From a virus (taxonomy: Duplodnaviria; Heunggongvirae; Uroviricota; Caudoviricetes), in IMG/VR virus record IMGVR_UViG_2529292907_000010: a DNA stretch of 9,695 nucleotides. One strand, written 5' to 3'. Within the stretch, counting starts at the first letter, position 1; every line of letters starts with the position of its first letter. Both the position numbers and the translations under genes were made by a program. Below are positions 1 through 5,605 of this stretch, piece after piece. The notes beneath the pieces were generated by a model. It had not been told where the DNA came from. It saw nothing but the letters and a program-made list of their open reading frames with translations, and searched no databases.

Positions 1-142
1 GTCGAACTTGAGCTGAAGGATCTTAAAACAGGTCTCCATAGTGCTCCTGGATTTTCTCTTTCTGGACATTGACGTCTCCACTGGTTTAAACACGGCAATG
101 GAGACTGTGGTGAAAAGAGTTAATTCCCGGAGTGACTGGCAG

Positions 143-270
143 GATGCCAATCAATGATCGGAAGCATGCTAAATCGTGATCGATTGTGATGCCAAACTGT
201 GATCGGAGATGAATGCCAAATCATGATCGATTCGAATGCCAAACTGCGATCGATTCAGATGCCATTTTGC
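143..270. repeat. Tandem direct repeat array, about 5.5 copies of a ~23-bp unit (consensus roughly GAATGCCAAAYYR-TGATCGATTC), each copy carrying a GATC site
   Basis: Read directly from sequence: GATC at 156-159, 178-181, 201-204, 225-228 and 248-251 (spacing 22-24 bp), each preceded by a GATGCCAA/GAATGCCAAA block. A sixth GATC lies at 325-328. The array sits about 200 bp upstream of the endolysin start. Confidence 0.8.
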
Positions 271-465
271 ACTCTGATTTTACCCGCTCATTTATGGCTT
301 GCAGGCATAAATCATAATTATGTTGATCGTTATGCATGGTTAATCCTCTACTGAAATTGTCAGATATATTTCAGCCATCAGGAAAAACGCCAGTGTCCTA
401 CCGCTGGCGGGCTGAAGATTTAACATATCCAGGGATTCGGAACCGATAAATCCTGATAAATATCC

Positions 466-999
466 ATGAACACCAAAATCAAATATGGCCTGTCGGCTGC
501 CGTTCTGGCGTTGATTGCCATCGGTGCGCCTGCGCCTGATATTCTCGACCAGTTTCTGGATGAAAAAGAAGGTAACCACACAACGGCATACCGTGATGGT
601 GCGGGTATCTGGACCATCTGCCGCGGTGCCACAATGGTGGATGGTAAACCTGTTATTCCGGGCATGAAACTGTCGAAGGAAAAATGCGACCAGGTTAATG
701 CCATTGAACGGGATAAGGCGCTGGCATGGGTGGAGCGCAATATTAAAGTTCCACTGACCGAACCACAGAAAGCGGGTATAGCGTCATTCTGTCCCTATAA
801 CATTGGCCCCGGTAAGTGTTTCCCGTCGACGTTTTATAAGCGGCTGAATGCTGGTGACCGCAGGGGAGCGTGTGAGGCGATTCGCTGGTGGATTAAGGAC
901 GGTGGCAGAGACTGCCGTATCCGCTCAAATAACTGTTATGGTCAGGTATCCCGTCGTGACCAGGAGAGCGCGCTGGCGTGCTGGGGAATCGACAGATAA
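466..999 (+). CDS. R: Phage endolysin, T4-lysozyme-like (glycoside hydrolase family 24), with an N-terminal signal-anchor-release (SAR) type hydrophobic segment
   Basis: 177-aa ORF. N-terminus GLSAAVLALIAIGAPAP is a Gly/Ala-rich weakly hydrophobic segment typical of SAR endolysins. Catalytic triad spacing E-x8-D-x5-T is present in EGNHTTAYRDGAGIWT. From memory it closely resembles the R endolysin of Stx/lambdoid prophages. An in-frame stop lies at 457-459, so 466 is the first possible start; no obvious Shine-Dalgarno. Confidence 0.93.
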   Translation: MNTKIKYGLSAAVLALIAIGAPAPDILDQFLDEKEGNHTTAYRDGAGIWTICRGATMVDGKPVIPGMKLSKEKCDQVNAIERDKALAWVERNIKVPLTEPQKAGIASFCPYNIGPGKCFPSTFYKRLNAGDRRGACEAIRWWIKDGGRDCRIRSNNCYGQVSRRDQESALACWGIDR

Positions 1000-1093
1000 G
1001 CAGAATATTTTGCTGAAAAATAAGGTATGGCCACGCGGGCGGATAACACGAAATCCTGCGAACTGGCGAAACGTAAGTGAATAAAAGTAAAAA

Positions 1094-1128
1094 CCCCGTT
1101 TGTTGGCACCAAGCGGGGTTTTGTGTTT
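1094..1128 (+). terminator. Rho-independent terminator-like hairpin (9-bp stem with one G-U pair, 7-nt loop, then T-rich tract)
   Basis: CCCCGTTTG (1094-1102), loop TTGGCAC (1103-1109), CAAGCGGGG (1110-1118), followed by TTTTGTGTTT. Lies between the endolysin stop and the next small ORF. Confidence 0.5.
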
Positions 1129-1155
1129 CTGACCTTGAGTAAGGCAAGGGAGAAC

Positions 1156-1338
1156 ATGGCGAAGTATAAACGAATTCTGTTGAGGTTGACTATGAAAAAT
1201 GGCCTTGAACTGAAAGCGCCTGTAACTGATGACATCAGCAGAGCACTGGCTTTTGCCATTAAGTGGGTGGCGGTCGGTGTTGCTGTGTCCCCGATGCTGT
1301 ATGGGCTGGCAAAACTGGTCATTGCGTTGAAATCGTGA
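1156..1338 (+). CDS. Small hypothetical protein (60 aa) with hydrophobic C-terminal half; candidate lysis-associated membrane protein
   Basis: ATG at 1156 preceded by purine-rich AAGGCAAGGGAGA. Product [60 protein letters not shown] has a basic N-terminus and a ~30-residue hydrophobic C-terminus. Same strand and tightly packed between R and Rz. The track's longer 1123 start is a GTG inside the terminator T-tract and is less likely. Confidence 0.45.
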
Positions 1339-1352
1339 AGGGAGGATTAAGC

Positions 1353-1484
1353 ATGTCAGACAAACTCATAACGCTGGCGAAGATCCTCTGTGTAATTGTC
1401 GGCATTTCATTTTCACTAATGCTGGTTGCTCTTTTTCTTTCCATGGCCTGGATGATGTTGTCTTCGTCGGGGTTGCTGGGGTGA
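1353..1484 (+). CDS. Small hydrophobic membrane peptide (43 aa), translationally coupled to Rz; candidate holin/antiholin-like or other lysis regulator
   Basis: Strong Shine-Dalgarno AAGGGAGGA (1338-1346) 6 nt before ATG 1353. Product [43 protein letters not shown] is almost entirely hydrophobic. Its TGA stop (1482-1484) overlaps the GTG start of Rz (1481) as GTGA. Confidence 0.45.
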
Positions 1485-1954
1485 ACATAAACCGAATGCT
1501 TTCCGCGTTTATCGTTATTCTGCTGGTGGCCTGTGGTGCGCTGTGGATGGCAACAGACCATTACCGTGATAACGCGATTACCTACAAAGCGCAGCGCGAT
1601 AACAAAGCCAGTGAACTGAAGCTGGCGAACGCAACCATTACTGATATGCAGGTGCGCCAGCGCGATGTTGCTGCGCTCGATGCAAAATACTCGAGGGAAT
1701 TATCCGATGCGAGAGCTGAAAATGAAACTCTGCGCGCTGATGTTGCCGCTGGTCGTAAGCGCCTGCGGATCAACGCCACCTGTCCAGGCTCCGTGCGTGA
1801 AGCCCCCACCACCTCCGGCGTGGATAATGCAACCGGCCCCCAACTGGCAGACACCGTTACACGGGATTATTTCACCCTCAGAGAGCGGCTGATGACGATG
1901 CACAAGCAACTGGAAGGGGCACAGGACTATATCCGCACTCAGTGCCTGAAATAA
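1481..1954 (+). CDS. Rz: Rz i-spanin (inner-membrane spanin subunit)
   Basis: N-terminal TM segment followed by [14 protein letters not shown]...[25 protein letters not shown]...[23 protein letters not shown], which matches my memory of lambda Rz closely. Start is either GTG 1481 (overlapping the upstream stop) or ATG 1496. Confidence 0.9.
1707..1892 (+). CDS. Rz1: Rz1 o-spanin (outer-membrane lipoprotein), fully nested in the +1 frame of Rz
   Basis: ATG 1707 with GAGG about 10 nt upstream. Product [61 protein letters not shown] has a lipoprotein signal with lipobox VSAC and a proline-rich mature region, as in lambda Rz1. Confidence 0.8.
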
Positions 1955-3157: not shown

Positions 3158-3706
3158 ATGAAGGTTAATAAAAAGAGGCTTGCCGAAATTTTCAACGTGG
3201 ACCCGCGGACGATTGAACGCTGGCAGTCTCAGGGACTCCCTTGCGCCTCCAAAGGTAGTAAGGGCATTGAATCTGTATTTGATACTGCCATGGCAATTCA
3301 GTGGTATGCGCAGAGGGAAACTGATATCGAAAACGAAAAGCTCCGCAAAGAACTGGACGATTTGCGTGCGGCAGCGGAGTCAGATTTACAACCCGGCACC
3401 ATTGACTATGAACGCTACAGGCTCACAAAAGCGCAGGCAGATGCGCAGGAACTGAAAAATGCCCGTGAAGACGGAGTAGTGCTGGAAACTGAACTGTTTA
3501 CCTTCATTCTGCAACGTGTGGCACAGGAGATTTCGGGGATACTTGTGCGTGTGCCGTTGACATTACAGCGTAAATATCCGGACATTTCACCATCACACCT
3601 TGATGTGGTGAAAACTGAAATCGCGAAAGCCTCCAATGTTGCAGCTAAGGCCGGTGAAAACGTGGGCGGGTGGATCGATGATTTCAGACGCGCAGAAGGC
3701 AGCTAA
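3158..3706 (+). CDS. Nu1: Terminase small subunit (gpNu1-like), N-terminal winged-HTH cosB-binding domain
   Basis: 182 aa. [28 protein letters not shown]...[49 protein letters not shown] is near-collinear with lambda Nu1 from memory. Confidence 0.95.
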
Positions 3707-5605
3707 TGCAGCCGGTGCGATAGCTACAGGGCTTTTATCTCTCATTATTCCTGTTCCACTGACGACAGTTCAGTGGGCCAATAAACATTATTACCTTCCT
3801 AAAGAGTCGTCTTATACCCCGGGGCGGTGGGAAACACTGCCGTTTCAGGTTGGCATCATGAACTGTATGGGCAACGATCTGATTCGCACGGTTAACCTGA
3901 TTAAATCTGCCCGTGTTGGTTATACAAAGATGTTGCTGGGAGTGGAGGCTTATTTTATTGAGCATAAATCACGCAACAGCCTTCTTTTTCAGCCCACGGA
4001 CTCAGCTGCTGAAGATTTTATGAAATCTCATGTTGAGCCAACGATAAGGGATGTTCCTGCATTGCTGGAGCTGGCTCCATGGTTCGGAAGAAAACACCGC
4101 GATAATACGCTCACCCTGAAGCGTTTTTCCTCCGGTGTGGGGTTCTGGTGTCTGGGTGGTGCGGCAGCAAAAAACTACCGTGAAAAATCCGTGGATGTGG
4201 TCTGTTATGACGAGCTTTCCTCGTTCGAACCGGATGTTGAAAAAGAGGGTTCGCCAACCCTGCTGGGGGATAAACGTATTGAGGGCTCTGTATGGCCAAA
4301 ATCCATTCGCGGCTCGACGCCTAAAATCAAAGGCTCCTGCCAGATCGAAAAAGCCGCTAACGAGTCGGCACACTTCATGCGTTTTTATGTGCCCTGTCCG
4401 CACTGTGGGGAGGAGCAGTATCTGAAATTTGGCGATGATGCCTCGCCTTTCGGTCTTAAGTGGGAGAAGAATAAGCCAGAAAGTGTTTTCTACCTTTGTG
4501 AGCATCATGGCTGTGTGATCCATCAGTCTGAGCTTGACCAGAGTAACGGGCGGTGGATCTGTGAAAACACGGGCATGTGGACCCGTGACGGCCTGATGTT
4601 TTTCAGCGCCCGGGGTGATGAAATTCCGCCGCCGCGCTCCATCACTTTCCATATCTGGACGGCGTACAGTCCGTTCACCACATGGGTACAGATTGTCTAT
4701 GACTGGCTGGATGCACTGAAAGATCCCAACGGCCTGAAAACCTTTGTGAACACCACGCTGGGCGAGACCTGGGAAGAGGCTGTGGGCGAAAAACTCGATC
4801 ACCAGGTACTGATGGATAAGGTTGTGCGTTACACGGCGGCGGTGCCTGCCCGGGTGGTTTATCTGACGGCGGGCATTGACTCGCAGCGAAACCGTTTTGA
4901 GATGTATGTCTGGGGATGGGCTCCGGGAGAGGAAGCCTTTCTGGTGGATAAAATCATCATTATGGGGCGTCCCGATGAGGAAGAGACGCTGTTACGTGTG
5001 GATGCGGCGATCAACAAAAAATACCGCCATGCAGACGGAACCGAAATGACTATTTCTCGTGTCTGCTGGGACATCGGGGGGATCGATGGCGAAATCGTTT
5101 ATCAGAGGTCAAAAAAACACGGTGTTTTCCGGGTGCTGCCGATAAAAGGCGCATCTGTCTATGGCAAGCCGGTGATCACCATGCCAAAAACCCGCAATCA
5201 GCGGGGCGTGTATCTGTGTGAAGTGGGGACGGACACCGCAAAGAAATTCTCTATGCCCGTATGAAAGCCGATCCCACGCCTGTGGATGAAGCCACGTCGT
5301 ATGCCATCCGTTTTCCTGATGATCCGGAGATTTTTTCGCAGACAGAGGCGCAGCAACTGGTCGCGGAAGAGCTTGTGGAGAAGTGGGAAAAAGGAAAGAT
5401 GCGTCTGCTGTGGGATAACAAAAAGCGGCGTAACGAAGCGCTGGACTGCCTGGTGTATGCCTACGCGGCATTACGTGTGTCCGTGCAACGCTGGCAGCTT
5501 GATCTGGCTGTACTGGCAAAATCCCGGGAAGAAGAGACGACCCGGCCAACCCTTAAAGAACTGGCAGCGAAGCTGTCCGGAGGAGTGAATGGTTACAGTC
5601 GCTGA
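3678..5605 (+). CDS. A: Terminase large subunit (gpA-like), interrupted by an apparent 1-nt frameshift near 5240-5245; possible pseudogene or sequencing error
   Basis: Frame 0 (3678-5264) matches lambda gpA from ...[12 protein letters not shown] through ...[13 protein letters not shown], then stops. The homology continues in the -1 frame ([17 protein letters not shown]...[25 protein letters not shown]... to stop at 5603-5605). The switch occurs in GCAAAGAAATTC; one missing base would restore a single ~641-aa ORF. Likely start ATG 3678, overlapping the Nu1 3' end as in lambda. Confidence 0.88.

Follow-up and report, generated by a model that had tools for sequence, protein, structure and literature searches.

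The stretch of DNA analysed here, called the window throughout, is 9,695 nucleotides (nt) long and is held as IMG/VR virus record IMGVR_UViG_2529292907_000010 (Caudoviricetes). Close to its left edge, on the plus strand, are the endolysin gene R, two small open reading frames (ORFs) for hydrophobic proteins of 60 and 43 amino acids (aa), named ORF60 and ORF43, and the spanin genes Rz and Rz1. A preliminary description of this DNA had stressed that no holin gene occupies the usual place, directly before R. It offered three readings of the small ORFs: a relocated or non-canonical holin/antiholin pair, a releasin of the kind described for phage Mu, or a moron. We favour the view that the lysis operon has been split by an insertion sequence (IS) of the IS21 family, and that ORF60 and ORF43 are late accessory membrane proteins. 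The features are collected in Table 1, and loci used for comparison carry L numbers.

Table 1. Features at the left edge of the window and across the R to Rz region.
Feature	Position	Strand	Evidence
Left end of IS21-family element (ISSso4-like)	1..271	-	98-99% identity to annotated istA element ends
Direct repeats, about 5 copies of ATGCCAAAyyrTGATCG	142..264		Tandem Repeats Finder (TRF), period 23/47
Remnant of a 104-aa hypothetical gene truncated by the IS, about 22 codons of its 5' end (WP_000551290.1 in relatives)	272..337	-	homology to IS-free relatives from 269
R, SAR-type (signal-anchor-release) endolysin (GH24 phage lysozyme, 933W/P21 R type)	466..999	+	Pfam Phage_lysozyme, E = 2.8e-25
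GC-rich 13-bp hairpin with A-tract and T-tract flanks; predicted, potentially bidirectional intrinsic terminator	1090..1122		terminator scan, fold
ORF60, small membrane protein, predicted tail-anchored (phrog_1115/4493)	1156..1338	+	dN/dS, AlphaFold2 (AF2), hydropathy
σ70-like promoter candidate TAGTCA-18-TATACT, speculative	1163..1192	-	consensus scan
ORF43, small single-pass inner-membrane protein (phrog_4906), transmembrane domain (TMD) at about residues 11-33	1353..1484	+	dN/dS, homologues, hydropathy
Rz, i-spanin, start GTG 1481 or ATG 1496	1481..1954	+	Pfam Phage_lysis, E = 7e-47
Rz1, o-spanin, embedded in Rz in the +1 frame	1707..1892	+	Pfam Rz1, E = 4.2e-20; lipobox VVSAC

A lambdoid prophage of Escherichia coli TUM13773 matches the window at 99.6% identity from position 269 through to the last nucleotide. 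Over positions 269-2200 the identity is 100% to prophages of E. coli strain 1070/13 and 99.9% to prophages of O104:H4 strains. The annotated gene order in IS-free relatives starts with a SASA esterase, a class II holin (71 aa), a truncated YdfR/DUF1327 gene and a 104-aa minus-strand ORF. It continues with a lysozyme, hypothetical proteins of 60 and 43 aa, a "lysis protein" (Rz) and small ORFs. Terminase, portal and head genes follow, and the ORFs of the window fit this whole layout. We read the window as the late region of a lambdoid E. coli prophage, resembling those of Shiga toxin (Stx) phages, with a lysis operon split by an IS21-family element.

The left edge has a different origin. Positions 1 to about 280 have no match in the prophage relatives; instead, the ends of IS21-family elements with annotated istA, in hundreds of E. 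coli genomes, match positions 1-276/283 at 98-99% identity. The minus strand encodes the N-terminus of IstA (the first 13 codons, from 39 down to 1), followed by the leader and the terminal inverted repeat (TIR) region. The terminus itself reads ...TTTTGCA and ends at position 271. This end could be placed because E. coli VTB97074v (L003) carries an ISSso4-family element, with istA and istB, flanked by a holin/DUF1327 remnant and a lysozyme gene, and its terminus reads ...GATGCCATTTTGCA. Only the left 271 bp of the IS are inside the window; istB is beyond the edge. In IS21, each TIR is built from several direct repeats, bound by IstA and set 23 bp apart, and finishes with a terminal CA (PMC10122671). 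Given this architecture, the period-23 array of the window is best understood as the left TIR, and its units as L-repeats, the predicted IstA binding sites. Hence, the tandem repeats reported upstream of R in the preliminary description are real, but they belong to the IS and are not an independent feature. The portion in the window shares the 5' end of istA, the 23-bp spacing and the terminal CA with ISSso4-like elements, and we saw no difference. On its prophage side the IS interrupts the 104-aa minus-strand gene, which is annotated intact at positions 3755-4069 of L001. The ISSso4-type element of E. coli VTB97074v (L003 2241-5280) occupies a different site in another prophage and is a second, independent hit in the spacer between holin gene and R.

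The IS bears directly on the question of the holin. In IS-free relatives the holin gene encodes a Phage_holin_2_1 protein (phage 21 S; Pfam E = 9e-33), and its stop codon is 1263 nt 5' of the R start. The intervening spacer (about 1.26 kb) contains the DUF1327/ydfR remnant and the minus-strand ORF. The same order, S-DUF1327-R, is found in the Qin prophage of K-12 (essQ-ydfR-rrrQ-rzpQ), and the 933W-like Stx phages have the same S directly adjoining the same R family. From IS-free relatives that are 99.6-100% identical, we infer that the holin is neither missing nor relocated; it would sit beyond the IS, outside the window. Positions 73-465 do lack a holin-sized ORF, as had been described. What does not survive is the absence of a holin as a property of the phage, since the window starts inside the IS21 element and identical relatives have the Phage_holin_2_1 gene upstream. 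A canonical holin gene immediately upstream, combined with small ORFs that were unconserved or non-coding, had been named in advance as the outcome that would overturn the first interpretation. Synteny with related prophages now places a holin gene upstream, although 1263 nt from R, and both small ORFs are conserved. Two Salmonella prophage lysis cassettes (L087 and L088) have two to three tandem copies of STnc100 (Rfam RF02076) upstream of their holin genes; L088 also has tRNA genes there.

The endolysin and spanins are of familiar types. R resembles the solved lysozyme chains 3hde/3hdf and RrrD (4zpu). Its N-terminus, MNTKIKYGLSAAVLALIAIGAPA, contains a weakly hydrophobic 19-mer (Kyte-Doolittle hydropathy, KD, 1.88), with lysines at K4 and K6. 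The R protein of 933W is treated as a SAR endolysin in PMC9239132. With a muralytic domain and a weakly hydrophobic, Gly/Ala-rich N-terminal signal-anchor that has few basic residues, R of the window has the attributes expected of a SAR endolysin, in agreement with the preliminary description. Rz has an N-terminal TMD and, with the embedded Rz1 lipoprotein gene, makes up a two-component spanin. Its start is uncertain. In relatives, Rz starts at an ATG 7-8 nt past the ORF43 stop, and the aligned codon of the window is ATA (1490-1492). Hence, Rz would start at GTG 1481 or at ATG 1496; the RefSeq annotation of identical DNA uses ATG 1496. The GTGA said to join the ORF43 stop to the Rz start is therefore present as sequence, whilst its role as the Rz start is in doubt.

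Several lines of evidence indicate that ORF60 and ORF43 are genuine and widespread genes. In 23 unique R-to-Rz haplotypes, ORF60 varies at 12 sites, distributed 1/1/10 over the three codon positions. Pooled Nei-Gojobori estimates of the ratio of non-synonymous to synonymous rates (dN/dS) gave 0.12 for ORF60, compared with 0.82 and 2.3 when the alternative frames are read. The value for ORF43 is 0.40 (about 0.38 in each half), against 0.81 and 1.37. For comparison, R gave 0.09 and Rz 0.39. Between E. coli and Salmonella, ORF60 differs at 16 codons synonymously and at 14 non-synonymously, and the frame is intact. The pair occurs in 1035 of 5426 complete E. coli genomes at a coverage of at least 80%. 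Homologues of ORF43, all full length and 65-100% identical, are present in 276 phage records that include most Stx-converting phages, although in Stx-phage records the gene is often unannotated. Thus, the two plus-strand hydrophobic ORFs seen between R and Rz in the preliminary description are confirmed as coding, conserved and placed within the late operon. They are conserved across hundreds of phages and genomes, have coding-type substitution patterns and are not the unconserved or non-coding sequences that would have spoken against the first interpretation. The strong Shine-Dalgarno (SD) sequence claimed for the second ORF is also there (GGGAGG, 7 nt upstream of ORF43). Both proteins fall in PHROGs without an assigned function: ORF60 in 1115/4493/3246, ORF43 in 4906. 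A literature search by accession and PHROG identifier found no paper on either, and the small ORFs are not mentioned in a survey of Stx-phage lysis cassettes (PMC8136144).

Both proteins are predicted to cross the membrane once. The AF2 model of ORF60 has helices at residues 2-16 and 23-59, with a mean predicted local distance difference test score (pLDDT) of 75. The N-terminal part is basic (net charge +7 overall). A long C-terminal helix, the TMD, is moderately hydrophobic (KD 1.88), and the protein ends ...VIALKS. ORF43 has a 23-residue core with a mean KD of 2.89 and a summed Hessa score of -3.8, K4 and K10 in a short N-terminus, and an uncharged tail of 10 residues. A TMD combined with a highly charged C-terminal domain is the mark of a holin; the charge of ORF60 is N-terminal, and ORF43 ends ...SSSGLLG. 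The predicted layout of ORF60 is tail-anchored, the reverse of the holin pattern in which TMDs precede a charged C-terminus. The idea that ORF43 derives from Rz or from holin S, whether as a fragment or by duplication, was rejected, as no similarity was found (ORF43 does not align to the holin S of relatives).

ORF60 belongs to a small family with many addresses. A profile search of 1.84 billion representative proteins returned only 21 clusters, which describe a narrow family of enterobacterial phage proteins of about 50-60 aa. Members share a motif, followed by a TMD that ends in ALKS, PLI.ALK or RWW. Scanning species-representative genome contigs with the ORF60 alignment found no relative, and tblastn of the ORF60 variant from L100 against phages added nothing. 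We inspected 14 diverse loci. In all of them the gene is co-directional with its neighbours, and the neighbours differ. The adjacent gene may encode a SAR lysozyme or a GH19 endolysin, or be ant. In phiSTEC1575-Stx2k, the ORF60-like gene is one gene 3' of an M15 peptidase, after a 93-aa ORF. Others are beside a peptidoglycan-binding endolysin-like protein (L103) or beside a DNA methylase, before Rz (L106). Further members are found by tail fibre or tail-fibre-assembly genes (L090, L102 and L107), after a tail tube gene (L105), between lambda K-like (JAB/NlpC) and I-like tail genes (L108 and L111) and after a capsid-like gene (L112). In L092 two tandem paralogues have a SASA esterase gene as neighbour. 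Relatives of ORF60 occur with at least four holin types, and hence ORF60 does not seem bound to one holin.

In L100 (2480-2837) and L103 (1501-1835) the ORF60-like gene ends in RWW-stop (TGGTGGTGA, which is SD-like) and is coupled directly to a gene for a lipoprotein of about 60 aa. This lipoprotein has the lipobox LLVGC or LLTGC and belongs to phrog_7528, and there is no recognisable i-spanin gene nearby. The phrog_6632 ORF of L006 likewise ends in RWW before Rz.

The junction between R and Rz appears to be a recombination slot whose cargo varies from phage to phage: nothing, ant, a phrog_6632 ORF, ORF60, ORF43 or combinations of these. Compared with the Stx2a phage L006, homology runs through R, the spacer and the hairpin up to the SD sequence (window 1154), and resumes at 1475, just before Rz. 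L006 has an unrelated hydrophobic ORF of 45 aa (phrog_6632) in place of 1154-1475. In the comparison with Stx1 phages (L005), homology ends at 1094 and returns exactly at the ORF43 start, 1353, with the antirepressor gene ant between. In VTB97074v, R overlaps a lambda-type Rz and nothing separates them. Salmonella prophages have either ant or a GH19 endolysin gene, then an ORF60 homologue, then Rz. The GC content is 42-52% over positions 1051-1500, compared with 50-57% in R and 51-62% in Rz, a modest difference. Some IMG/VR loci have duplicated slots (R-o60-o43-o43-Rz in four loci and R-o60-o43-o60-Rz in two), and some called ORFs, among proteins P0090, P0093 and P0098 and IMG/VR loci, fuse the N-terminus of ORF43 to the C-terminus of ORF60. 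These duplications and fusions show that rearrangement in the slot is ongoing. A motif of about 25 nt, GGACGGATAACACrAAATCC, is located upstream of the hairpin (window 1040-1089; also L006, L088, L089 and L106). It is kept after endolysin genes of different families, and is not found in tail-operon contexts.

Cassettes of this general kind are known from Qin (essQ-ydfR-rrrQ-rzpQ) and from 933W-like Stx phages such as Min27, PA2 and phi191 (S-R-ant-Rz-bor). These share with the lineage of the window the P21 S holin family, the R family and Rz/Rz1. In Qin, too, the holin is separable from R by a DUF1327 gene, and 933W-like phages also have extra genes between R and Rz (ant and an ORF43 homologue). 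The window differs in the IS21-family element upstream of R and in having ORF60 in place of ant.

The gap between R and ORF60 contains a strong terminator-type hairpin that the preliminary description did not include. An equivalent hairpin is found upstream of the ORF60-like gene in all 14 loci. In 11 of the 14, an automated search located the hairpin at a distance of 20-49 nt from the start codon; in L102, L106 and L110 it selected a different structure, and the hairpin was read by eye. In an alignment of 15 hairpins, compensatory double changes are evident in 4 of the 10 pairs. The hairpin is not merely the terminator of R, an idea that was rejected, as it accompanies the ORF60-family gene whatever gene is upstream. 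Its retention across differing upstream genes places it in the 5' flank of the ORF60 cassette. The consensus scan detected no plus-strand σ70-like site between 1000 and 1156, and inspection by eye revealed none between the hairpin and ORF60; weak or non-σ70 promoters are beyond a consensus scan. Nor does the cassette have a downstream terminator: the hairpin is upstream of ORF60, and ORF43 runs straight into Rz.

ORF60 is also likely to have a second start, predicted from an internal GAGG (1182-1185) and an in-frame ATG at 1192 (M13), which would produce a 48-aa form. GAGG or GGAGG precedes the internal ATG by 5-9 nt in 14 of the 14 loci, even where the encoded residues differ (LRLT, VEAN or MRLS). 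Arginine at the internal SD site is always specified by the rare codon AGG in these loci. Many gene callers predict the 48-aa form. The family thus moves as one compact cassette: hairpin, SD sequence, and an ORF with a further SD sequence and start inside it.

We consider the most probable explanation, at roughly 60%, to be an IS-split lysis operon in which ORF60 and ORF43 are late accessory membrane proteins and not a holin, antiholin or releasin. RNA polymerase modified by Q would travel from pR' through the hairpin. This would be the sole transcription route for ORF60 and ORF43, because ordinary polymerase would be halted at the hairpin, beyond which no promoter was detected. The two ORFs would be translated in series with Rz, with tight coupling, and late in infection both peptides would enter the inner membrane. 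Both ORFs are probably dispensable, since one or both are missing from many phages that have the same R and Rz. Most likely they would tune a membrane or lysis step, and ORF43 possibly acts on or for the spanin. The ORF60 family appears moron-like in its behaviour, being mobile, present or absent among relatives, and found at many late-operon junctions. As in a moron, the extra DNA has sharp boundaries (breakpoints 1154/1475 and 1094/1353).

Some observations weigh against this explanation. The upstream DNA of the window itself was not recovered. No complete E. coli genome spans window positions 1-470, and a pattern search for the exact IS/prophage junction found no match in genome contigs, IMG/VR or metagenome contigs. 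Since the junction is absent from all collections searched, the holin of this particular prophage is deduced from its near-identical relatives. Similarly, late-only expression is predicted from a consensus promoter scan and a predicted terminator. A terminator upstream and no detected plus-strand promoter make an atypical moron; classical morons have their own promoter and a downstream terminator (PMC3594210). Of the three readings first proposed, the moron is nevertheless the only one that fits the evidence, in its presence/absence pattern and sharp boundaries if not in its transcription signals. Finally, the recurrence of the endolysin-spanin position across unrelated cassettes, and the tight coupling to the spanin gene, could mean a dedicated role in lysis.

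The best-placed alternative concerns ORF43, and we regard it as possible but unlikely. ORF43 would be a spanin accessory: either its TMD pairs with the TMD of Rz, or its translation delivers ribosomes to Rz after foreign DNA broke an ancestral R-Rz coupling. ORF43 has one context only, unlike ORF60. Of 88 copies, 83 have the stop codon within a few nt of the start of an Stx-type Rz, with either ORF60 or ant upstream. The gene thus appears to be lineage-specific and nearly always packed against the 5' end of the Stx-type Rz. Its last codons form a G-rich, SD-like sequence ahead of the Rz start. The C-terminal half of ORF43 varies together with the Rz allele, although this may be plain physical linkage. 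Conversely, phages with a lambda-type Rz and the L006 cassette lack ORF43 altogether, and a dN/dS of 0.4 points to constraint on the peptide beyond what coupling alone would impose.

A less probable alternative is that the ORFs are lysogenic-conversion or superinfection-exclusion (Sie) morons, expressed from the repressed prophage, which would act at the inner membrane to block DNA entry or alter the envelope in the manner of HK97 gp15. Small inner-membrane proteins with presence/absence polymorphism, encoded by DNA of slightly lower GC content than its flanks, would suit such a role. Relatives of ORF60 are found in tail operons and after tail-fibre genes, just as HK97 gene 15 is (PMC3594210). 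That gene, like ORF60, encodes a small membrane protein, is present or absent among relatives, sits between late genes including those for the tail, and is associated with an intrinsic terminator (PMC3594210). The differences concern expression and descent. For ORF60, no promoter was detected on the plus strand between hairpin and ORF, a gap of only 20-49 nt in the loci where the automated search located the hairpin. The conserved terminator just upstream would silence read-through in a lysogen, so lysogen expression looks unlikely. Neither ORF60 nor ORF43 matched Pfam, NCBIfam, PADLOC or the annotated Sie PHROGs, and no relationship to a Sie family was seen.

Less probable again is a joint account of the two genes. 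ORF60-family proteins would be late, dual-start (60/48 aa), toxic membrane proteins, silenced in lysogens by the upstream terminator and, in one subfamily, by antisense RNA. They would constitute a portable module for lysis timing or depolarisation that lambdoid phages insert at any junction of a late operon, with ORF43 as a dedicated partner of Rz. The part that concerns ORF60 can be stated separately, and in that form is improbable: a toxic, holin-like or type-I-toxin-like protein that modulates lysis timing by means of a terminator, a cis-antisense RNA ending at the hairpin, and its two starts, which would work like the dual-start motif of a holin/antiholin gene. The minus strand has a promoter-like site within ORF60, inside codons 3-13 (Table 1). 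Its geometry, T[AG]G[TA]CA-18-TATA[CA]T, recurs in 10 loci of the KY subfamily, one with a perfect TATAAT, and the U-tract of the hairpin on the minus strand is good in all loci. According to a minority hypothesis, this promoter and the hairpin could yield an antisense RNA of about 75 nt over the ORF60 SD sequence and start. Codons 3-14 of ORF60 are nucleotide-identical between E. coli and Salmonella, whilst 28 of the 46 other codons differ. The constancy of the internal SD sequence and of its AGG codon is in keeping with this scheme, and the extra holin-like proteins of phage P1 can cooperate with a SAR endolysin (PMC9025707). Yet the KLY subfamily, with a spacer of 23 nt, does not keep the promoter geometry. 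The arrangement that a type I toxin-antitoxin locus would need, a promoter-like site plus a minus-strand terminator, is thus seen in the KY subfamily only. Hits in the promoter scan were no more numerous than in shuffled sequences, and the KYKR codons together with the internal SD sequence can also account for the conserved nucleotides. No Rfam family matched at the ORF60 region of the window or of 17 related loci; the only hits were STnc100 and tRNAs, upstream of holins. ORF60 also has no charged, holin-type C-terminal tail and, unlike specific antiholins, its family coexists with at least four holin types.

The reading of the ORFs as a holin/antiholin pair that was relocated or is non-canonical, or as a releasin like that of Mu in a holin-less phage, is largely refuted and very improbable. 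Such an origin would account for the position next to a SAR endolysin with two N-terminal lysines (K4 and K6), the hydrophobic character of the products and their coupling into the late operon, but identical relatives have a P21-type holin gene upstream, neither ORF matches a holin in Pfam, the lysis PHROGs or NCBIfam, or DUF2730 in Pfam, at E <= 1, relatives of ORF60 also occupy tail and head operons, and many phages with the same R and Rz do without one or both ORFs. The Mu releasin, gp25, is a DUF2730 protein of 99 aa with an N-out/C-in topology and an anionic cytoplasmic domain of 73 aa, from a phage that lacks a holin (PMC9239132). The likeness is that of a small membrane-tethered protein encoded 3' of a SAR endolysin. 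The window ORFs differ in family, and in topology and charge they are opposite to gp25: in ORF60 the N-terminus is basic and the TMD is C-terminal, and ORF43 is nearly devoid of soluble parts (tails of 10 aa). The lineage of the window, moreover, has a holin.

The late accessory proteins that we favour have positional precedents. Phage P2 encodes LysA, an accessory membrane protein, between the endolysin K and the spanins LysB/LysC. In phage P1, LydC and LydD act with the SAR endolysin Lyz (PMC9025707). These are small, non-essential membrane proteins of lysis operons that tune lysis, and the order endolysin, membrane protein, spanin is that of P2 lysA. There is no homology, however; ORF60 and ORF43 are single-pass proteins, and relatives of ORF60 also occur outside lysis cassettes.

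Two further stretches of the window deserve mention. The large terminase gene (3636-5605) has a 1-nt deletion around position 5239 relative to the TUM13773 prophage, which divides it into ORFs of 542 and 114 aa. With the IS, this suggests a decaying prophage, or else the deletion is a homopolymer sequencing error. Between Rz and terS, where lambda has bor, positions 2100-2770 are AT-rich (31-39% GC). This interval contains a hydrophobic ORF of 46 aa (2305-2445) with no family match, and a minus-strand gene of the DUF3950/YlcI-YnfO family (2578-2763).

A SAR-endolysin cassette without a holin would have been an important finding, but that prospect dissolves with the IS insertion and the window edge. 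What is left is two small membrane-protein genes in the lysis operon of about one fifth of complete E. coli genomes. ORF43 is found in most Shiga-toxin phages, in which release of the toxin depends on lysis. The architecture of ORF60, with an upstream terminator, two predicted starts and no detected promoter, is unusual and strictly conserved, and the cassette appears to hop among late-operon junctions. Should ORF60 and ORF43 influence the timing of lysis or the action of the spanins, burst size and toxin release would be affected too.

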